Assembly (NCBI GenBank): GCA_037481775.1
Contig: JBBFKZ010000001.1
Location: 151,150 to 215,149 of the forward strand
Length of the DNA stretch: 64,000 nucleotides
Reading direction: 5' to 3'
Origin: Candidatus Bathyarchaeia archaeon
GTDB taxonomy: Archaea > Thermoproteota > Bathyarchaeia > Bathyarchaeales > Bathycorpusculaceae
Position numbers and translations under genes: made by a program. Shown in pieces: positions 18,621-29,036 of this stretch. The notes below the pieces were generated by a model. It searched no databases. It was not told the DNA's origin and worked only from the letters and a program-made list of their open reading frames with translations. The number at the start of each line of letters is the position of its first letter. Position 1 is the stretch's first letter.

Positions 18621-18926
18621 GTGGAACATGTGGACGAGCTGGGGTTTCCCGACTTAACCACCGAGCAAATTGAGGTGTTATGCTCTACAGCGGAGAATGC
18701 TGCCAGAAACTTTGTTCTCTCGAAGATGTCCGCCAAAATGGTGGAGAAATTGAACATAAGCGTGGAAGTTGAAGGAACAAAACCTGTGAATGTGACGGTT
18801 GAGATAGAGTTGGAGCTATCGCCGAAAATGAAGGAATTTGACGTTGAAAAACTGGTGAAAGATGCGGTTAAAGAGGCGCATAAAGCAAGTGAAAATTACC
18901 TGAGAAAACTAGCATGTCCATCCTAA
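18621..18926 (+). CDS. Small conserved archaeal hypothetical protein (DUF3194-like by recollection)
   Basis: 101 aa with a GTG start, immediately downstream of pfdB and overlapping the DHH gene by 13 nt. Confidence 0.45.
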   Translation: MEHVDELGFPDLTTEQIEVLCSTAENAARNFVLSKMSAKMVEKLNISVEVEGTKPVNVTVEIELELSPKMKEFDVEKLVKDAVKEAHKASENYLRKLACPS

Positions 18927-19912
18927 ACATATTAGCTATTCTAGACGAAGTTGATGCCAAATTCGTTCTTTTACTATGTCATCACAACGCAGATCCCGAC
19001 GCAATATGCTCAGCCTATGCTTTTCAAGGCTTATTATCAAAGGTAAAGCCGCACATTGCTGCTGAGATTGGCGCTGGACAGGGGATCAGCAGGCTTTCAA
19101 AGCACATCTTAAAGCGGCTGCCTATAACTGTGAACTTGAATCCAAATGTGGAGAAAGCTGATGCCATATTGCTATTAGACACTAATACAATTCAACAATT
19201 GGATTCTTTGTCTGAAAAAGTGGCGAGAATCAAGGTGCCTATAATCGTAATTGACCATCATGCAGCTCATCCTGAGACGGAGCGTGTGGCGAGGTTATGT
19301 GTAACAGACGAAAAAGCCTCTTCTACATGTGAAATAATTTACGATTTTTACAGGCAGCTCAACATTAAACCAGACTTAAATGCGGCTAAAGCGCTGTTTC
19401 TGGGGATAACCTTCGATACCCGCCACTTTGTTTTAGCTAATTCTGCAACCTTTAAAACTATAGCTGCACTCAGTGATATAGGCGTGAATCCTCAAGAGGA
19501 GCTGGCTGCGCTTGCTTTGCCAATGGACTTTTCTGAGCGCGTCGCGAGAATAAAAGCGTGTAGAAGAGCCAAGCTAGTTAAGATGGAAAGCTGGATAATT
19601 GCTTTTTCGCATGTTAGTGCATATCAAGCTTCAGCCGCAAGAGCATTAGTTGACTTGGGTGCGCATTTGGCAGCAGTGGCGGGGCAAAAAAATGATAAGA
19701 TTGAGATTAGTCTACGCTGCACCAGCGAATTTCATCAAGCGACTGGCATCCACTTAGGAAGAGACATAGCCAAACCCTTAGGCGAGTATCTCCAAGGGAT
19801 GGGTGGCGGACACGCTACGGCTGCGGGGGTTAATGGCATAGGATCCATAGAAAAAGGGCTTAAGCGTTGCTTGCGATTGGTGAAAGAAAAACTTGTTGTC
19901 ACTAATCATTAA
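18914..19912 (+). CDS. DHH/DHHA1 family phosphoesterase (NrnA/RecJ-like)
   Basis: 332 aa. 'HHNADPDAICSA', 'VIDHH' and 'GGGHATAAG' motifs. Confidence 0.8.
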   Translation: MSILNILAILDEVDAKFVLLLCHHNADPDAICSAYAFQGLLSKVKPHIAAEIGAGQGISRLSKHILKRLPITVNLNPNVEKADAILLLDTNTIQQLDSLSEKVARIKVPIIVIDHHAAHPETERVARLCVTDEKASSTCEIIYDFYRQLNIKPDLNAAKALFLGITFDTRHFVLANSATFKTIAALSDIGVNPQEELAALALPMDFSERVARIKACRRAKLVKMESWIIAFSHVSAYQASAARALVDLGAHLAAVAGQKNDKIEISLRCTSEFHQATGIHLGRDIAKPLGEYLQGMGGGHATAAGVNGIGSIEKGLKRCLRLVKEKLVVTNH

Positions 19913-19968
19913 TGGGTAGCTACTCTTAAATGTGGCGACTAAGCGTAACATAGGCGGGCACAGCGACC

Positions 19969-20823
19969 ATGTCCATAATAGAAACAAAAAACCTCACATA
20001 CATTTATCCCGGCGCAACATATCCCTCAATTAGCGATGTGTCAATAAAAGTAGAGAAGGGCGAATTCGTTCTAATTACTGGGCCCAGCGGCTGCGGAAAG
20101 ACAACATTGTGCCGATGTTTTAACGGGCTTATCCCACATTTTTACCAAGGCGAATTAAAAGGCGAAATAACCGTGGCCGGGTTGGATCCCACTAAGCATC
20201 ATACACACGAAATGGCAAAGAGCGTGGGCATGGTTTTTCAAAACCCGGAAAATCAGCTTTTTGCCTTATCCATAGAGAAGGATGTAGCGTTCGGACTGGA
20301 AAATCTAGGTGTACCCAGAGAAGAAATACGGAAAAGGGTAGATTGGGCGCTCATGCAAACGGGCATTTACGACCTACGTGAAAGGTCACCGCATGAAGTT
20401 TCGGGTGGTCAGCAGCAACGCGTTGCTATCGCCGCTGTCCTCGCCATGCAGCCCGAAATAATAGTTTTAGATGAACCGACCTCTTTCCTAGACCCGTTGA
20501 GTGCAGAGAGAATATTTGAAGTGATACATGAACTTAACAAGAAACTTGGAATAACCGTGGTGCTGGTGGAGCATCGGCTTGATTTAACCGCTAAATACGC
20601 CGATCACATAATAATAATGGACGATGGCAAGGTATGCTTCGACGGCGCGCCCAGAGAAATTCTAAGCACCGAAGAAACACGCCTAATCGGTGTAGGTATC
20701 CCGAAAGCCACGCTTCTTTACAATTTGCTTAGGAAGGAAGGCATAAAACTGAGCGATATTACGCCGTTGTCTTCGGAAGAACTGGCAACACTGCTGTTGG
20801 AGGCTCTGAAGCCACATGATTGA
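19969..20823 (+). CDS. ecfA1: ECF transporter ATPase component
   Basis: Walker A 'GPSGCGKTT', signature 'VSGGQQQRV', Walker B 'IIVLDEPTS'. Confidence 0.85.
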   Translation: MSIIETKNLTYIYPGATYPSISDVSIKVEKGEFVLITGPSGCGKTTLCRCFNGLIPHFYQGELKGEITVAGLDPTKHHTHEMAKSVGMVFQNPENQLFALSIEKDVAFGLENLGVPREEIRKRVDWALMQTGIYDLRERSPHEVSGGQQQRVAIAAVLAMQPEIIVLDEPTSFLDPLSAERIFEVIHELNKKLGITVVLVEHRLDLTAKYADHIIIMDDGKVCFDGAPREILSTEETRLIGVGIPKATLLYNLLRKEGIKLSDITPLSSEELATLLLEALKPHD

Positions 20824-21640
20824 AGCTGAAAATGTTCACTTTGTTTACCCCAACGGTGTGGAAGCCTTAAAGGGCGTTTCGCTGGTTATCAGGGAAGGCG
20901 AGTTTGTGGCTATAATGGGCCAGAACGGCGCTGGAAAAACAACACTGATCAAGCATTTTAACGGCTTGCTGAAGCCGACAAAAGGATCAGTGCGGGTAAA
21001 CGGCGTGGAAACTACCAAAACCAGTGTTGCTTCCCTTGCGCGAAACGTTGGTTTTGTGTTTCAAAATCCTGATCATCAGCTTTTCAGCGAAACAGTCGAG
21101 GAAGAAATAGCTTTTGCATTGAAAAACTTTGGATTCGAAGCCGACGTGATAGAAAAGCGCATCAGTTGGGCTTTGAATCTTCTGGGGTTAGAGCAGTACC
21201 GTAAAACTTCACCTTTTCTGCTAAGCGGCGGCGAGCGAAAAAGAGTTGCGTTAGCCTCTGTTCTGGCTTGGGATCCGCAAACGCTGGTTTTAGACGAGCC
21301 AACGATAGGGCAGGACTATCAACAGAAGGAAAAGCTCCGCCAGTTTATTATTCAAATGCAGACACAAGGCAAAACAGTTATTATAGTTACACATGATGTA
21401 GAATTTGTGGCTGAGTGCAACCCGCGAGTAGTGTTGATGAAGGAAGGAAGAATTGTCGCTGATGGCGAAGGTAAAGGAATACTCACCAACCCTGAAGTTT
21501 TAGCTCAGTCATCTGTTGTTCTGCCGCAGATAACTCAAATTTTCATGAAACTGACGCCGCTGGGTCTTTCGAAAGACGTCATAGACCTCTACGAAGCAAA
21601 GGAAATATTACTCAAGTGCTGGAAGGGAGGTAAGAAATGA
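20816..21640 (+). CDS. ecfA2: ECF transporter ATPase component
   Basis: Walker A 'GQNGAGKTT', signature 'LSGGERKRV', Walker B 'LVLDEPT'. Overlaps the upstream ATPase gene by 8 nt. Confidence 0.85.
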   Translation: MIEAENVHFVYPNGVEALKGVSLVIREGEFVAIMGQNGAGKTTLIKHFNGLLKPTKGSVRVNGVETTKTSVASLARNVGFVFQNPDHQLFSETVEEEIAFALKNFGFEADVIEKRISWALNLLGLEQYRKTSPFLLSGGERKRVALASVLAWDPQTLVLDEPTIGQDYQQKEKLRQFIIQMQTQGKTVIIVTHDVEFVAECNPRVVLMKEGRIVADGEGKGILTNPEVLAQSSVVLPQITQIFMKLTPLGLSKDVIDLYEAKEILLKCWKGGKK

Positions 21641-22425
21641 GCTTTTTTGACGGCTTAAAATTCCGCAAAGTCTACTCGCCAATTCACAATTTAGATCCAA
21701 GAATGAAGTTCATATATGTCTGCTCGGTGTTTGTAGCGGCGATTCTCTTCAGCGAAATTATTCCATTATCCATTCTTTTCTTGATGCAAATACCCTTTGT
21801 TCTATTGGCGGGCGTCCCAAAGGAGTGGCTCCGTTCGCTTCGCGGCGCCGTCTTTCTAGCCGCATTCATTTTCCTAATTAATATAGCAACCAGCTTTTTC
21901 ACTTCAGGCTACATGCTGACAGCAGCCAATGTGGAAAATGCTGCTGCCTTGACCCTGCGCTTTATAGTGCTCGTGGAAGCCTTCTCGGTTTTCTTTTTGA
22001 CAACCTCTCCAGACCATCTGGGTTTGGCGTTAGAGCAGAGCCATGTGCCCTACGAGTTCGCTTTTGCCTTCACAACTGCAGTGCGTTTTGTTCCTGTTTT
22101 GGCAGAAGAAGCTCATACGATAATGGATGCGCAAAAGGCGCGAGGGTTGGAGTTGGAGAAAGGTAGTTTCATGAAGAGGATTAGAAACTACATTCCAATT
22201 CTCATCCCGCTAATAGTCAGCGCTATCCGGCGAAGCCTCGAGTTGGCTGAAGCTATGGAGTCACGTGCTTGGGGCGCCGCGAAAAAACGCACAAACTTGT
22301 ACGCGTTAAAGCTGCACAGAGGCGATTTTGCTTTATTGACGATAACACTCGCGGTTTTGGCGATTGCGGTTTATGCTAGGCTTTATGTGCCTGTGCCAAC
22401 GTTAACTCAACTAATTGGAGTTTGA
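21637..22425 (+). CDS. ecfT: ECF transporter transmembrane (T) component, CbiQ family
   Basis: 262 aa and polytopic. 'AEEAHTIMDAQKARG' ARG-type coupling-helix motif. 4-nt overlap with ecfA2. No S component in the window. Confidence 0.8.
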   Translation: MSFFDGLKFRKVYSPIHNLDPRMKFIYVCSVFVAAILFSEIIPLSILFLMQIPFVLLAGVPKEWLRSLRGAVFLAAFIFLINIATSFFTSGYMLTAANVENAAALTLRFIVLVEAFSVFFLTTSPDHLGLALEQSHVPYEFAFAFTTAVRFVPVLAEEAHTIMDAQKARGLELEKGSFMKRIRNYIPILIPLIVSAIRRSLELAEAMESRAWGAAKKRTNLYALKLHRGDFALLTITLAVLAIAVYARLYVPVPTLTQLIGV

Positions 22426-22529
22426 GCACCACTAATTTGGAGATTTTTCCTGGTTAGCTTTTAGCTGTTTTTGGTGAATTCCAGTTCATATTAACTATAC
22501 ATATAGCTTATTAATACTTACGACACACC

Positions 22530-22537
22530 ATATTTTT
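22530..22537 (+). promoter_or_regulatory. TATA-like box upstream of ATG 22563 (pilus locus promoter candidate)
   Basis: ATATTTTT centred about 29 nt upstream of ATG 22563. This spacing is typical of archaeal promoters driving leaderless or short-leader mRNAs. Confidence 0.3.
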
Positions 22538-22704
22538 CAAGAAACATCCGACACTCTAACCCATGGAGGGCAAAACCCACGAAGAAACAACAAGACCCAA
22601 AAACAGTAGACACTCTGGATCAGCCGCAAGCACCAGCAATAATCAGCGGTGCACCTACAAAACCTGCAGTTTTCCAAGAAGTCTACGCCCTCCAAGAGCC
22701 ATAC

Positions 22705-24141
22705 GTGTACGCGGCAATTGTCCGAGAAAAAGAAACCCAAAAGCTGCGCTACGAAGTTATAGAGCCTACTCTCCAACCAAACGAGGAAAAGTATCTTCGT
22801 GAAATAAAGAATTTTCTGATGGATGAAGTAGACGTAAACTTGAAAGAAATTGAAAACAAAGACAAAGCAGAAAACTTTCTAAGACAAAAAATCCGGGGGA
22901 TCATAAAAAAGTACCGCATGAAAATCCCAGCAGAAGCGGTTGACAAACTCACCTATTACATAATAAGAGATTCCTTAGGCTACGGAAAAATTGACCCATT
23001 AATGAAAGATCCTTTAATTGAAGATATCTCTGCAGACGGCACAAACATTCCGCTCTACGTGTGGCATCGCTTCTACGAGTCGCTGCCAACAAACATAATG
23101 TTCACAAACGTCGCTGAACTGGATGCCTTCATAATTCGCCTTGCATATCTAGCTGGCAAAAGCATTTCTCTAGCTACACCAATTCTTGACGCGACTCTTC
23201 CAGAAGGAAGCCGCATACAGCTCACCTACGGCAGCGAGGTCACCCGAAGAGGCTCAACCTTTACTATAAGGCGCTTCAAAGCGGATCCGCTGACAATCTC
23301 GGATCTCATAGCTTTCAACACCCTTTCCTCGGAGATGGCTGCTTACCTGTGGTTCATCATAGAGAACCGAGCTTCAGTCTTGGTGGCAGGCGGGGTAGCC
23401 AGCGGCAAGACCACTCTGCTCAACTGCCTATCCATGTTCATAAAACCTGAAATGAAAATTGTAAGTGTCGAAGACACTCAGGAGCTTAATCTCCCACATG
23501 AAAACTGGATACCCTCCGTAGTGCGCACTGGCTTCAAAGGTGATGACAAGCAAAGCGGCGACATCACCCTCTTCGACTTGCTGAAGGCGGCGGTTCGGCA
23601 GAGGCCTGACTACATTATTGTCGGTGAAGTGCGTGGTGAAGAAGCCTACACGCTGTTCCAAGCCATGGCCACAGGGCACTTGGGCATGTCCACCATTCAT
23701 GCTGAATCAGTCGACGCCGTAATTAAGAGGCTTGAATCCGAGCCGATGAATATTCCTAAGTCGCTTATTGCGATGACTAACGTCATTTTAGTTATGGAAA
23801 GAACCGAAGTTAAAGGGAGACCTGCAAGGCGAGTGAGCGTTGCATCTGAAGTAAAAGGAATTAATGCAGAGACAGATGAGATTCTAACTGAAAATGTGTT
23901 CCGCTGGAGCCCTCAGTTTGACAAGTTCACTTCAGGCGACAGCGTCCTCTTGGAGAAGCACATGAAGAAGCTGGGTTTAACCGAGGAAGATATACAACGT
24001 GAATTTAAAGCTAGGAAGACTGTTCTGGAGTGGATGGTAAAGGAGGGGATCCGACACTACAGTGACGTGGCCAAAGTGATCAGAGAATACTATGCTAACC
24101 CGAACCGTGTCTTCCAAAAGGCGAGAGTGGGGTTCAAATGA
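22705..24141 (+). CDS. Type IV filament secretion ATPase (archaeal FlaI/PilB/TadA family); N-terminus probably out of frame upstream
   Basis: Walker A 'GGVASGKTTLLN', 'DYIIVGEVRGEEA', 'TGHLGMSTIHA'. The intact ORF starts at GTG 22705. The same frame is open back to 22507 and encodes 'AVFQEVYALQEPYV' with no start codon. ATG 22563 lies in another frame. Confidence 0.85.
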   Translation: MYAAIVREKETQKLRYEVIEPTLQPNEEKYLREIKNFLMDEVDVNLKEIENKDKAENFLRQKIRGIIKKYRMKIPAEAVDKLTYYIIRDSLGYGKIDPLMKDPLIEDISADGTNIPLYVWHRFYESLPTNIMFTNVAELDAFIIRLAYLAGKSISLATPILDATLPEGSRIQLTYGSEVTRRGSTFTIRRFKADPLTISDLIAFNTLSSEMAAYLWFIIENRASVLVAGGVASGKTTLLNCLSMFIKPEMKIVSVEDTQELNLPHENWIPSVVRTGFKGDDKQSGDITLFDLLKAAVRQRPDYIIVGEVRGEEAYTLFQAMATGHLGMSTIHAESVDAVIKRLESEPMNIPKSLIAMTNVILVMERTEVKGRPARRVSVASEVKGINAETDEILTENVFRWSPQFDKFTSGDSVLLEKHMKKLGLTEEDIQREFKARKTVLEWMVKEGIRHYSDVAKVIREYYANPNRVFQKARVGFK

Positions 24142-25133
24142 GAAAAAAGCTCATGAAGAAACTCGCTACTGCCAAGGAACATTTAGCAGCGCTTAAAGGG
24201 TTAGATGAAAGTTCAAAACAAACACAAAAATCACTCTTGAAAGAACCTGTTGGGTTTTTGGAAAAGCCGTTATCTATAGCTTATCAGCTAATGGGCAGTA
24301 AAGCTGAGCGGTTTATGCCCCTATTCAAAGATTTAGACCAAACATTGCAAAAAGCAGGCTTAAAAATTAACTTCAAAGCATATATAAGCTTAACAATTTT
24401 ATCGTCGCTATTGATCGCCTTGGCAGTAGCGGCAGTGTTGCCTCTATTGTTATTTTCTATTTGCGCCGTGCCAATAAGCTCAGCGCTCTTATTCGGTTTA
24501 GGCGGCGGTCTACTCGCATGTTTTCTCTCGATTATTGGTTTTTACCTCTATCCAGTTTATCATGCGGATAAGCATAAACGAGAATTGGATGACGAGTTGC
24601 CCTTTACGACTGGCTACATGGCTATCCTGTCAAGTGCAGCTGTTCCTCCTGAAAAAATTTTTTATTCGCTCTCAAACTTGAATGTGCCTTTAGCTGTTTC
24701 CGCAGAAGCCAAAGAAGTTGCAAAAGGCATCAACTTGTTCGGTTTAGACGTGATATCCGCCTTAGAAAGGGTGTCAAAACGCACACCTTCTGAAAAACTG
24801 CGAGGCATCATAGAGGGAATAATATCTACAATACACACGGGCGGCAACTTAAGTGCGTTTCTGAGAGGAAAATTTAAGGTCGCAATGAACCTGAAAAAAG
24901 TGGGACTCAAAAAGTACGCCGACAATTTGGCAATTCTGTCGGAAATTTATGTAGCCTTACTCTTGACTGGCCCGTTGCTTCTAGTCATTATGGTGTCGGT
25001 TATGTCGGTGATGGGCGGCAGCATAGGCTTACTCAGCCCCGACATGCTACTGGGGCTTTTAACTTATTTGGTGATTCCAGTTTGCGCTGTCGTATTCCTC
25101 CTAATCTTGGACTCAACTTCGCCAAAATGGTAG
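24138..25133 (+). CDS. Type IV filament platform protein, N-terminal half (T2SSF domain; FlaJ/TadB-C-like)
   Basis: 331 aa and polytopic. Cytoplasmic T2SSF-like segment 'LPFTTGYMAILSSAAVPPEKIFYSL...GGNLSAFL'. 4-nt overlap with the ATPase gene. Ends at TAG 25131..25133, in frame with the next ORF. Confidence 0.75.
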   Translation: MRKKLMKKLATAKEHLAALKGLDESSKQTQKSLLKEPVGFLEKPLSIAYQLMGSKAERFMPLFKDLDQTLQKAGLKINFKAYISLTILSSLLIALAVAAVLPLLLFSICAVPISSALLFGLGGGLLACFLSIIGFYLYPVYHADKHKRELDDELPFTTGYMAILSSAAVPPEKIFYSLSNLNVPLAVSAEAKEVAKGINLFGLDVISALERVSKRTPSEKLRGIIEGIISTIHTGGNLSAFLRGKFKVAMNLKKVGLKKYADNLAILSEIYVALLLTGPLLLVIMVSVMSVMGGSIGLLSPDMLLGLLTYLVIPVCAVVFLLILDSTSPKW

Positions 25134-25139
25134 ATAAAA

Positions 25140-25955
25140 ATGCCCAAGATAGAGCGTAAAACGAAAAAACTTGCGATCATGATTTCAGCTCTGATAGCTA
25201 CCGCAATAGTCCTTGCTGGCTATTTCACTGTTGGCCTCAGCCCCGCGTTAGATGACTTCGTGTTTTTCGGTTTTCTCATCGTTATTTCGCCTATCGCGCT
25301 CTTGAATTATCTTGATTACAGGTGGAGAAAAGCTGTTGACGAGCGTTTGCCCGACTTATTCCGAAGCATAGTTCAAGCTCAAGAGACAGGCATGACACTT
25401 CACAGCGCTTTAGAAGAAGCAGCAAAAAGAGACTATGGTCCGCTAACTCCTGAACTGAAAAAGATGACTGCACAGATTTCTTGGGGTGCAAGTTTCGAGG
25501 AGGCACTTTCAGCCTTTGGAAAACGCGTGGGCACAGTGCTAACCCAGCGGACGGTACCCTTGATAATTGAAGCTAGCCGTTCAGGAGGGCAAGCAGAGAA
25601 AATTTTCGGGCCTATGGGCAAATTTATCCAGAGCACTCTTCTGCTTGAGAAAGAACGCAGAACGCAGACCCGCCCATACATAGCCATAATCTACGTGGCG
25701 CTTTTCGTGTTTCTATTCACGATAGTGATTCTTTTCAAAACCTTTTTCACAAATGTCGACGGCACAGCCTTGTTTTCCATGTCAACGGTTTCACTTATTA
25801 ATTTGCAGCGAATTTTCATGCATTTAACGATAATTCAAGGATTTTTCGGCGGTCTCGTGGCGGGCAAAATGGGTGAAGGCTCAATAACCGCTGGCTTAAA
25901 GCACAGTCTCATAATGATGCTGCTGGGCTATGTTGCATTGAATTTCTTTTTGTGA
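25140..25955 (+). CDS. Type IV filament platform protein, C-terminal half (T2SSF domain; FlaJ/TadC-like)
   Basis: 271 aa. 'LPDLFRSIVQAQETGMTLHSALEEAA...SWGASFEEALSAF...IIEASRSGG' T2SSF-like domain followed by TM helices. Confidence 0.75.
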   Translation: MPKIERKTKKLAIMISALIATAIVLAGYFTVGLSPALDDFVFFGFLIVISPIALLNYLDYRWRKAVDERLPDLFRSIVQAQETGMTLHSALEEAAKRDYGPLTPELKKMTAQISWGASFEEALSAFGKRVGTVLTQRTVPLIIEASRSGGQAEKIFGPMGKFIQSTLLLEKERRTQTRPYIAIIYVALFVFLFTIVILFKTFFTNVDGTALFSMSTVSLINLQRIFMHLTIIQGFFGGLVAGKMGEGSITAGLKHSLIMMLLGYVALNFFL

Positions 25956-26386
25956 GGATGAAGAAAATGGCTAAGGCAGCTAAACGGTTTTTGCAGGATA
26001 AGCGGGCCATAACACCCGTTCTCAGTCATCTCTTGCTCACAGTCGTGGCAGTGGCGGTTATGGCCATTGCCACTTCAGCCACGTTCGTGATAACCACCAA
26101 TCTCAGGGAGACTATGGGCGAACGCGTCTCAGTCGAAGACGTCTGGTTTAACAGTTCCACTGGTACAGTGAACGTTTACCTACGTAACGTGGGTAAAACT
26201 GCCATCCAAGTCGTGGCCGTTTACGTGAACCACGTAGGCAGCCCATTCAACTCGCCTTTTCGTTTAGAGCTAAATCAGCATGGTTGGCTAAGCGTTAATT
26301 GCACATGGAATCCTGGAGACACTTACTATATAGACGTAGTCACAACTAGGGGGACTCATGTTGCAGGTTATTACAAGGCGCCTTAA
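25952..26386 (+). CDS. Archaeal type IV pilin-like protein (class III signal peptide)
   Basis: Basic leader, then 'KRAITPVLSHLLLTVVAVAVMAIATSATFVI', then a small beta domain ('VNVYLRNVGKTAIQVVAVYVNH'). Start is ambiguous: GTG 25952, ATG 25958, or ATG 25967, which has GAGG 8 nt upstream. Confidence 0.7.
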   Translation: MRMKKMAKAAKRFLQDKRAITPVLSHLLLTVVAVAVMAIATSATFVITTNLRETMGERVSVEDVWFNSSTGTVNVYLRNVGKTAIQVVAVYVNHVGSPFNSPFRLELNQHGWLSVNCTWNPGDTYYIDVVTTRGTHVAGYYKAP

Positions 26387-29036
26387 ACTGTTTAAACATG
26401 GAAAACGCGGCATAAGCACCGTCATAGTCGTCATGCTAAGCCTAGTCCTCATAGTAGTCATAGTTGGCAACGTAGTTCTCTGGAGCTATCAGATGAACCA
26501 GTTAGACATGGAAAGAATGCAGGAAACTCTGAGCCTCATTAATGCAACGCGCATAACCCGTTCCTCATGGAGCATCGCCCAAAGAGAGTACATTACCAGC
26601 GCTGGTAGTAAGCTAAGCGGAACGTTCGTAGATACAACTGCTGCCGATAGTCTCGCTGAAACTTTTAGAGAAGAACTTGAAGGAATTTATAGTTATAATC
26701 CTTCGAGTTATACGCTTGGCGGTGCAACAAGCTATGTATTAGGCGATATTTCAGACCTTGCGTTATCAGATGGAGTATGCATGAATTTCAGAAGTTACAT
26801 GTCCAGTTCTCCCGCTAACGACAAGACTGACGCCTTCGTCGCTTACAGGGATTCTACAACATCACTCAATACACCTAAATGGCGGGTATGGGATGGCGAA
26901 AGCTTAACATGGAACTCGCAGAGCGAGTTGCCAACAGCTAACAGCTCTGTCAGGTGGGTTCGCGTCGCATATTCGCCGCTGGAATCCAGAAGCTATGAAA
27001 AAATTGTCGTCACGCTGTCGGATGACGGCTACTTAGATGCTTATGTATGGAATGGAGCAGCATGGAATGTTACAAGCAACATTGCCTTTCCCGGCACCTC
27101 CGCGAACGCGTATAGATGTTTTGATGTGGCTTACGAAAAAACAAGTGGCAGAGCACTACTGGTTTACTCAAGAGGCACGACAACAAACGAGATAGGCTAC
27201 AGAAGATGGACGCCGGAAACAGGCTGGGGCCCTGAGCAACTTCTGGATTTACCGTACACGTCAGGCATAGTGCGTTGGATCAGTCTAGCGAGTAGCCCTG
27301 GAGCACGTGCAGGAACAAGCGATGATAACGAGATAGCCATGATTTATCTAGACGCGAACAACGATGTTCACGGCTACGTCTGGACTGGTTCAGCATGGAG
27401 CCTTATGGGTGCAACAGCAATCTGGGATGCCACAGCAGCAACGTCAACACGCGAGTGCATAGCCGTTGCCTACGAGCAGACCACAGGCGAAGCCATGTTC
27501 ATCTGGGCGGATTCTGGAAGCAATCGTTTCTACTATAGAACATGGAATGGCGCAACCTTGAGCGCGGCAACTCTTCTAACTATAACAGCCACAGGAGGCG
27601 CTGGTTACTGGGTAACGCTGAAAGCTGATCCCGCATCCGATGACATGCTTTTCCTCGTAATTGATAGTGGAGCAGACCTCAACACGGCTTACTGGAACGG
27701 CAGTACATGGACAGTTCACACAGAACACGACGACACAGTCGACACAAATGCTAGGCGTTGCGCCGATTTCGCTTGGGAGCCCTCAGGCGGAAAAGGCTTA
27801 CTAGTATGGGGAACAACCACTGGACAAATAGCATATAAGACGTTCGTTGCGCCAAACGCATGGGGCACGCAGCAAAACATTGCAATGGGCGGGGCAAGTA
27901 ACATTCATCCTTGGGTGCAGTTGAGAACTAATCCTCGAAATGTCCCTGACGACGTATTGATATTAGGCTTGGTCCTTGAGGGAACCGCTTATGATTTGGG
28001 CGCTATAAGCTGGGACGGGGCAACCTTAACCGTTCTAGGCTCAAGCGTTATCTCAGCAAACACCACCGTAATTACATATGAGTGCTTCGAGTTGGAGTTC
28101 GCTAATTTTGGCGTGCCAACGTTTACGTGCGAAGTGGAGTTTTCAGGAAAATCGGATGTCAAAAACTGGACCCAACTTCTCTGGGCAGCAGCTTTATCCT
28201 TCACAGTACCAGATGTAACAACAACGTTTCAATTATATAATTATAATTTGGGTCAGTATCCAACAAGTGGAAGTGGATACATAACCGACACCATCGGGCA
28301 AACTACGGTTCCAAAAAACCAGACTATACCAGTTTCCTCAACGGATTTTCGAGATGCCAACGGGAACTGGAAAATGAAAATAACTGGAACCAAAATCACC
28401 TATACGCAGTTTGAAATGCACGTTGACTGGATAGAATTTAAACCGACACTGTTTGATGTTTACCGCCTTAATGTCGTCAATAATTTTGCAGTGGATTTAT
28501 CAACTTATCCGCGGGAACACATTCAGGGTTTAGAGTTGCTAATTAAGTATAAAGTCTCCGAAAGCTCGGAAAGATGGTTCTTAAAAGCGTATAACTGGCG
28601 CGCCGCTGCTTTCAGTGATGTAGGCTTCAACGTTACAGCTGGAAGCCAGCCGATACTTGGTGAATGGACTGAGTACGCTATAGCTGTTACAGACGATTGG
28701 GCTGATTACGTAAACGAAGAGGGCCTGGTTCGTGTAGAGCTTTTTGATGAAGGCACAGGTGCAAATCAGACTGTGTTGGAAATCGACTTCTTTGCAGTAA
28801 GAGTCATAATTGATGCCACACGCATAGACGTGAAAAACTCGAGTCCAATAAGCGTTCGCATCGTAGCAGTTTGGGTCATAAACTCTACAATGCATCAGCG
28901 CTACGATGTAGACATGTTGCTTAACGCTGGAGAAGCGGCAACGTATATCCGCGCGGACATAAAAATGCCGCAAGATACTTTTTTGGCAAAGGTTGTTACA
29001 GAAAGGGGCAATGTAGCCGTTTTCTCAAAAGACTAA
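26358..29036 (+). CDS. Giant pilin-headed surface protein: class III signal peptide, 8-repeat beta-propeller-like module, two beta-sandwich-like modules, pilin-like C-terminal domain
   Basis: 892 aa. N-terminus 'KHGKRGISTVIVVMLSLVLIVVIVGNVVLW'. Eight 'Y..W.G..W'-type repeats spaced about 52-56 aa apart (residues about 158-581). The C-terminal 74 aa are paralogous to the small pilin's globular domain. Confidence 0.7.
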   Translation: MLQVITRRLKLFKHGKRGISTVIVVMLSLVLIVVIVGNVVLWSYQMNQLDMERMQETLSLINATRITRSSWSIAQREYITSAGSKLSGTFVDTTAADSLAETFREELEGIYSYNPSSYTLGGATSYVLGDISDLALSDGVCMNFRSYMSSSPANDKTDAFVAYRDSTTSLNTPKWRVWDGESLTWNSQSELPTANSSVRWVRVAYSPLESRSYEKIVVTLSDDGYLDAYVWNGAAWNVTSNIAFPGTSANAYRCFDVAYEKTSGRALLVYSRGTTTNEIGYRRWTPETGWGPEQLLDLPYTSGIVRWISLASSPGARAGTSDDNEIAMIYLDANNDVHGYVWTGSAWSLMGATAIWDATAATSTRECIAVAYEQTTGEAMFIWADSGSNRFYYRTWNGATLSAATLLTITATGGAGYWVTLKADPASDDMLFLVIDSGADLNTAYWNGSTWTVHTEHDDTVDTNARRCADFAWEPSGGKGLLVWGTTTGQIAYKTFVAPNAWGTQQNIAMGGASNIHPWVQLRTNPRNVPDDVLILGLVLEGTAYDLGAISWDGATLTVLGSSVISANTTVITYECFELEFANFGVPTFTCEVEFSGKSDVKNWTQLLWAAALSFTVPDVTTTFQLYNYNLGQYPTSGSGYITDTIGQTTVPKNQTIPVSSTDFRDANGNWKMKITGTKITYTQFEMHVDWIEFKPTLFDVYRLNVVNNFAVDLSTYPREHIQGLELLIKYKVSESSERWFLKAYNWRAAAFSDVGFNVTAGSQPILGEWTEYAIAVTDDWADYVNEEGLVRVELFDEGTGANQTVLEIDFFAVRVIIDATRIDVKNSSPISVRIVAVWVINSTMHQRYDVDMLLNAGEAATYIRADIKMPQDTFLAKVVTERGNVAVFSKD

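Follow-up and report, generated by a model that had tools for sequence, protein, structure and literature searches.

A platform protein of an archaeal type IV filament system is very probably encoded by two separate genes in the Bathyarchaeia genome described here, as a stable product of gene fission, and the TAG codon that lies between the two genes is a genuine, ordinary stop codon. The genes are found in a 64,000 nucleotide (nt) stretch of contig JBBFKZ010000001.1 (positions 151,150 to 215,149, forward strand) of the Candidatus Bathyarchaeia archaeon assembly GCA_037481775.1; this whole stretch is referred to below as the window, and positions given without a contig are those of the window. 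The first open reading frame (ORF), encoding the N-terminal half of the platform (N-half), runs from the ATG at 24138 to the TAG at 25131..25133 (331 amino acids, aa), whilst the second, encoding the C-terminal half (C-half), runs from the ATG at 25140 to the TGA at 25953..25955 (271 aa). The spacer between them is ATAAAA (25134..25139) and translation across the junction reads ...LDSTSPKW-stop-IKMPKIERKT... A preliminary description of this DNA, made from the sequence alone, had reported two ORFs in the same frame that are set apart by a TAG and two sense codons, each with a single T2SSF-like domain, and direct reading of the sequence confirms the coordinates and the translation. Its total of about 604 aa was close: the two halves sum to 602 aa, or to 605 positions when the stop and the two spacer codons are included. 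Each half possesses one Pfam T2SSF domain (PF00482) and no more, at 1.3e-09 in the N-half (residues 160-285, 38.5 bits) and 2.7e-18 in the C-half (residues 80-198, 66.6 bits), against a gathering cut-off of 25.2 bits.

The junction in related genomes

Homologues of this platform are encoded in 39 of 41 genomes of the order, with the orthologues present as N and C halves. A read-through homologue search of 40 relatives recovered an orthologue in nearly all of them, mostly as two matches in differing frames. That search supplied junctions from 20 + 16 loci, and 79 more Bathyarchaeia species supplied the rest; after the removal of duplicates, 97 distinct orthologous pairs were available for comparison. 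The related loci come from metagenome-assembled genomes of Candidatus Bathyarchaeia/Bathyarchaeota. The last residue of the N-half is shared across these 97 loci (...SP[KR]W-stop), a few variants such as ...SPR-stop apart, and in 97 of 97 the C-half begins with MPKIE or a close variant, with a conserved ATG after the stop. The codon at the junction is always a stop and never a sense codon, being TAG in 42 loci, TAA in 29 and TGA in 26. Spacer length varies from -4 to +13 nt, and frame offsets of 0, 1 and 2 are seen at 32, 19 and 46 loci, respectively, an in-frame share (32/97, 33%) that is exactly the chance frequency. When mapped on to a FastTree phylogeny of the concatenated proteins of the 97 loci, the frame state and the stop codon each show at least 29 changes. 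The protein ends are fixed, whilst stop codon, spacer and frame are free to drift, and the shared frame in the window is a neutral, often-changing by-product of spacer length.

The small steps by which the frame is altered can be seen amongst the closer relatives. The junction of the genome described here is TAGataaaaATG, with a 6-nt spacer, and close relatives differ from it by a 1-nt indel in the A-run. A member of the same genus (G002, locus L007) has an 8-nt spacer, TAGgaggaaaaATG, that places its C-half in frame +2. In four further loci (L046, L047, L049 and L051), where the C-half is 81-82% identical, the junction reads TAGagaaaATG or TAAagaaaATG, and the 5-nt spacer has one A fewer than the TAGagaaaaATG and TAGataaaaATG of this genus. 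The idea that the shared frame dates back to the nonsense mutation that first split the gene was considered and rejected: with 29 or more frame switches over the tree, the present frame in this orthologue group retains no memory of such an event.

Both halves are under purifying selection, the ratio of non-synonymous to synonymous substitution rates (dN/dS) being 0.08-0.17 in the N-half and 0.07-0.10 in the C-half. These values bear directly on a second explanation, that a recent nonsense mutation has left a decaying platform pseudogene in a dying pilus locus. At first sight such an explanation is invited by a single in-frame stop at the very boundary of two domains that FlaJ and UpsF carry in one chain. 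The stop is, however, found at the same residue in 97 species of the order, split homologues are known from elsewhere in the phylum, the ATG and the MPKIE N-terminus that follow the stop are conserved at all loci, and neither the ATPase gene nor the pilin gene alongside is disrupted. Because at least 97 species retain the split and selection on the two halves is not relaxed (dN/dS 0.07-0.17), decay is effectively excluded and we consider it very improbable. Of the explanations listed in the preliminary description, which also included decay, the one that the relatives bear out is an evolved split of the TadB/TadC type whose shared frame is coincidental. The orthologous loci contain two genes that are each conserved in their own right whilst their spacing and frame vary, which is the pattern that the description had set against decay and read-through.

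Reality and decoding of the TAG codon

The source genome is a metagenome-type assembly (1.82 Mb in 54 contigs, 96.7% complete), and a stop created by assembly or sequencing error might therefore be suspected. The junction TGG-TAG-ATAAAA-ATG is, however, identical in seven independent conspecific metagenome assemblies, derived from JGI, ENA and Logan samples, that are 98.8-99.6% identical to the source at the DNA level; the conserved junction text in all seven is tcgccaaaatgg-TAG-ataaaa-ATG. TAG is also found at the same site in four other species of the genus, and in public collections the halves are called separately, as proteins of 331 aa and 271 aa. As the seven assemblies share the junction, the TAG is fixed in the species and cannot be an error of assembly.

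TAG is decoded as pyrrolysine in some archaeal lineages, and were the TAG to be recoded here, as pyrrolysine or as another amino acid, the gene would encode a single 605-aa protein. The preliminary description had suggested a survey for pyrrolysine genes and suppressor tRNAs, and the outcome was negative on each count. In this 96.7% complete genome PylS (TIGR02367) and PylD (TIGR03911) give sub-threshold matches only, whilst a Methanosarcina control (M. acetivorans) scores above the cut-off. Searches of the genome with ARAGORN, with and without introns, found no tRNA with a CUA, UUA or UCA anticodon. TAG is not rare as a terminator, ending 371 of the 1520 ORFs of at least 150 aa (24%), and TAA or TGA occupies the same site in orthologues. 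TAG is not decoded in this genome, and the likelihood that the two halves are joined by recoding is negligible.

Single-chain counterparts and translation of the C-half

In different systems the fused platform is named PilC, GspF, FlaJ or TadC. Aligned to NCBIfam models of two-domain platforms, the N-half covers positions 6-248 of 555 in ArlJ/FlaJ and 43-246 of 484 in UpsF, and the C-half positions 273-539 and 285-448, respectively. When the halves are concatenated, they align with a 570-aa fused paralogue from the same genome (G000:C4:91282-92964) with a BLASTP expect value (E) of 2e-59 and 26% identity; the alignment is colinear and pairs residues 41-600 of the concatenate with residues 4-559 of the paralogue. 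The N-half corresponds to residues 4 to ~280 of the paralogue and the C-half to residues ~283 to 559, and the break between the two is located in a short loop that follows a transmembrane helix. ArlJ/FlaJ, UpsF and the paralogue thus have the same two-repeat architecture as the concatenate, colinear over ~560 residues, but are single polypeptides, whereas here a stop and a new start lie in the inter-repeat loop. A second single-chain paralogue of ~506 aa is encoded at G000:C7:34690-36087, in addition to that of ~570 aa. This brings the type IV filament platform systems of the genome to at least three, one of them split and two fused.

In the proposed scheme, the 331-aa and 271-aa halves would be made as separate polypeptides, each comprising one cytoplasmic T2SSF domain and transmembrane helices, and would presumably form a heteromer that takes the place of the pseudo-symmetric two-repeat single-chain platform. 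Such a heteromer would couple pilin polymerisation to the hexameric ATPase. Translation of the C-half most probably proceeds by termination-reinitiation coupling across the 6-nt spacer, with re-initiation probably helped by a weak Shine-Dalgarno (SD)-like element, GGT(A)GAT, that overlaps the tryptophan (W) codon and the stop. Coupling is suggested by the tight packing of the operon, by what has been reported of reinitiation at short gaps, by SD use in this genome and by the 3' end of its 16S ribosomal RNA (...GGATCACCTCCT). In Haloferax and in E. coli, termination-reinitiation needs overlaps or very short gaps, and it is enriched among the subunits of heteromeric complexes (PMC10666635).

A crude ORF scan of the source genome was used to gauge how genes of this spacing are arranged. 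It contains 378 co-directional pairs with gaps of -4 to +20 nt, of which 103 have a 4-nt overlap of the ATGA type, and in the 378 pairs SD-like 4-mers peak at -11 to -13, being present in 59% against a background of 16%. This strong enrichment indicates that SD use is common inside the operons of this Bathyarchaeon. The same scan found 90 co-directional in-frame pairs with gaps of 0-12 nt, 21 of which end in TAG, so an in-frame close neighbour is not unusual in this genome. At the platform junction, the GGT of TGG(W)-TAG (25129..25131) lies at -11 to -9 from the ATG of the C-half. The conserved W codon together with the stop yields GGTGA in relatives with a TGA (tggTGA), and GGTAG here, at the right distance; other relatives have purine-rich spacers such as TAGgaggaaaaATG. 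The earlier statement that the 6-nt gap has no obvious SD sequence is therefore literally correct, but the GGT just upstream of the gap stands near the genome-wide peak of SD 4-mers.

The preliminary description leaned towards coupling or read-through. Coupling has become the likely mode of expression; the companion idea, that partial read-through of the TAG yields fused and split forms side by side, fared less well. In its selected form this idea holds that a functional fused 605-aa platform is made alongside the two halves in this in-frame lineage, and there is something to be said for it: the ORFs share a frame and just two sense codons follow the stop, functioning two-domain paralogues in single-chain form are encoded elsewhere in the genome, and the in-frame state is commoner at TAG than at TGA junctions (raw p = 0.002). 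The frame is, however, not conserved (offsets 32/19/46, and 29 or more switches over the tree) and differs both within the genus and at 81-82% identity through indels of 1-2 nt. All three stop codons are used, and in 6 of the 32 in-frame loci the spacer itself contains another stop in the same frame (TAG-TAG, TAG-TGA or TAA-TGA). The linker codons of the in-frame loci (IK, RK, RE, VA, stop-K) are not conserved either, the ARAGORN search of the genome found no suppressor tRNA, and the association with TAG disappears both under phylogenetic control (p = 0.125) and when TAG is compared with TAA (p = 0.14). As the frame varies within the genus, three stops are in use and tandem in-frame stops occur in relatives, selected read-through is strongly disfavoured.

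Some observations weigh against the two-gene reading, or against parts of it. The first is the association just mentioned: 21 of 42 TAG junctions are in frame, compared with 11 of the 55 others (Fisher p = 0.002, raw). Amongst phylogenetically independent pairs the median sign-test p for TAG and the in-frame state is 0.125. TGA junctions have shorter spacers (mode 5 nt, including overlaps of -4 and -1) than TAG junctions (mode 6 nt), and this difference accounts for the raw excess. Plausibly, the spacers differ because tggTGA already constitutes an SD core, while at TAG and TAA junctions the purines lie in a somewhat longer spacer. It is also conceivable, although very unlikely, that basal read-through in the in-frame lineages gives a little fused platform of the ancestral type that is tolerated or mildly useful; if this were true, the weak excess of in-frame TAG would be a faint trace of selection and not a side effect of spacer length and SD use. 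Next, the AlphaFold2 (AF2) model of an artificial fusion of the halves is of moderate confidence only, with a predicted local distance difference test (pLDDT) score of 63 and a predicted TM-score (pTM) of 0.51. Foldseek matches of this pLDDT 63 model reach target TM-scores (TMt) of 0.69-0.77 and probabilities of about 1 but have weak E values (>0.01). The SD-like element at the junction is degenerate, being GGTAG and not GGTGA, or GGTGAT with one extra base. Lastly, the heteromer and the translational coupling are features that we infer for this organism.

In the same AF2 model, the junction residues (326-336) are non-helical, with pLDDT below 50, and lie between two long helices. The best Foldseek matches are PilC in 3jc8 (a model of the type IVa pilus machine) and the cytoplasmic domains of OutF and EpsF, whilst searches of Protein Data Bank sequences with each half gave no match at E <= 1.

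Known two-gene platforms and the genomic setting

The Bathyarchaeia locus fits the known two-gene platforms of archaeal type IV pili and of Tad/Epd systems. TadB/TadC and the Epd-like archaeal platforms have one T2SSF domain each and have been described as fission products of a two-domain platform (PMC6668835), a view that is repeated by Pelicic (2023; PMC10191384). In both the bacterial Tad (type IVc) system and the Epd pair of Methanococcus maripaludis, as here, the platform genes are contiguous, carry one T2SSF domain each and are interpreted as the outcome of a gene fission; of each pair, one gene matches the N-terminal and its partner the C-terminal repeat found in two-domain archaeal platforms (Denise et al. 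2019; PMC6668835). The order of the genes is different: the platform genes precede the ATPase gene in the Epd and Tad loci (PMC6668835), whereas here the order is ATPase, N-half, C-half, colinear with the fused protein. A further difference is that the locus described here has no adjacent second ATPase of the TadZ or FlaH type, since no TadZ-, MinD- or FlaH-like gene is present among the neighbours at 18914..29036, the interval that was searched for one. In bacterial Tad loci, tadB (C-like) comes before tadC (N-like).

Two tadC-like genes are found in several clades of archaeal type IV pilus loci (Makarova et al. 2016; PMC4858521), namely clade 1 (Methanococci), many clade 2 loci of the PilB3/PilB4 type and clade 4B (Thermoproteales). 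These loci resemble the present one in having an ATPase gene, two adjacent platform genes and pilin genes, and the ATPase here has a PilB3_C domain. They differ in that Bathyarchaeia are not mentioned in that census (0 occurrences; PMC4858521). The present locus extends the documented two-gene arrangement to Bathyarchaeia pilus loci. The significance of the result is mainly that of a negative one: where a stop separates the two T2SSF repeats of an archaeal pilus platform in frame, it is not to be annotated as a pseudogene, as a frameshift or assembly error, or as recoding. The comparison of 97 loci, for its part, offers a clean picture of a gene-fission junction.

The setting is a compact type IV pilus operon (Table 1), as is shown by the assembly ATPase upstream, with its T2SSE and PilB3_C domains, and by the pilin-like ORF and the 892-aa protein downstream. 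Genes follow in the order ATPase, N-half, C-half, pilin and large pilin-like protein, and are closely packed, with a 4-nt ATGA overlap (24138..24141) between the TGA of the ATPase gene and the ATG of the N-half, then the 6-nt gap, then a GTGA overlap or short gap. Against the NCBIfam FlaI model the ATPase scores 1.4e-128, under that model's cut-off. The platform pair directly adjoins this T2SSE-type ATPase and the pilin-like gene, the matches of the latter to pilin families (UpsA and BasA) being weak, with E about 0.006. The N-terminus of the putative pilin reads KRAITPV followed by a hydrophobic stretch, and the same 139-aa ORF is present in public gene calls. Over the wider interval 18914..29036 the neighbours comprise a DHH protein, two ABC ATPases, CbiQ, the pilus ATPase, the two halves, the pilin and the large protein.

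Table 1 Features of the split platform locus (window positions) and split platform loci in other genomes
Feature	Position or locus	Strand	Basis
Type IV filament assembly ATPase (FlaI/PilB3-like)	22705..24141	+	Pfam T2SSE 7.1e-39, PilB3_C 2.7e-06
N-half platform gene, 331 aa, ends ...LDSTSPKW-TAG	24138..25133	+	T2SSF; separate 331-aa protein in public assemblies
TAG, stop codon of the N-half	25131..25133	+	Same in 7 conspecific assemblies; stop at equivalent site in 97 orthologous loci
Junction and spacer, GGTAGAT then AAAA; likely re-initiation zone	25129..25139	+	16S 3' end, SD statistics, relatives
C-half platform gene, 271 aa, begins MPKIERK	25140..25955	+	T2SSF; separate 271-aa protein in public assemblies
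Small putative pilin, 139 aa, MAKAAKRFLQDKRAITPVLSHLLL...	25967..26386	+	Class-III-signal-like N-terminus, directly after platform genes
Large protein of the same operon, 892 aa	26358..29036	+	ORF list; Pfam GH114_assoc 2.5e-08
Second split platform pair	L021-L027, L035: G015:C27, G035:C35, G040:C1:1010000-1012500, G027:C12, G034:C13, G022:C3, G006:C69, G021:C41		
In-frame split homologues in other Thermoproteota classes, examples	G137:C1:335417-337165, G083:C1:527148-528956, G103:C16:5809-7464		

The start of the ATPase gene is uncertain. The GTG at 22705 is the first canonical start in its frame, which is open upstream to about 22507; the only ATG close by (22563), in the region 22507-22710, is in a different frame. 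Public gene calls on conspecific contigs give a 479-aa ATPase that starts one codon before this GTG.

Beyond the order, split homologues with 30-44% identity occur in other classes of Thermoproteota. Judging from the in-frame and out-of-frame cases across these classes, the two-gene platform appears to be widespread in the phylum. Together with a second split paralogue family in the relatives, these homologues indicate that the split is either old or recurrent. Homologues in other Thermoproteota families and classes with ~30-32% identity have a single in-frame TAG or TAA between the halves (examples in Table 1), and in those of G099, G145, G048 and G094 the halves lie in different frames.

The second paralogous platform pair of the relatives is 28-36% identical to the one described here and is also split at the equivalent position. 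Its N-terminal halves end in ...GW-stop, ...SW-stop or ...EEE-stop, the spacers are 3-9 nt in length, one locus has a TAA-TAA tandem stop and seven of eight are in frame, in a sample that is biased because in-frame pairs come up as a single read-through match. At one of these loci (L027), there is no canonical start codon near the stop.

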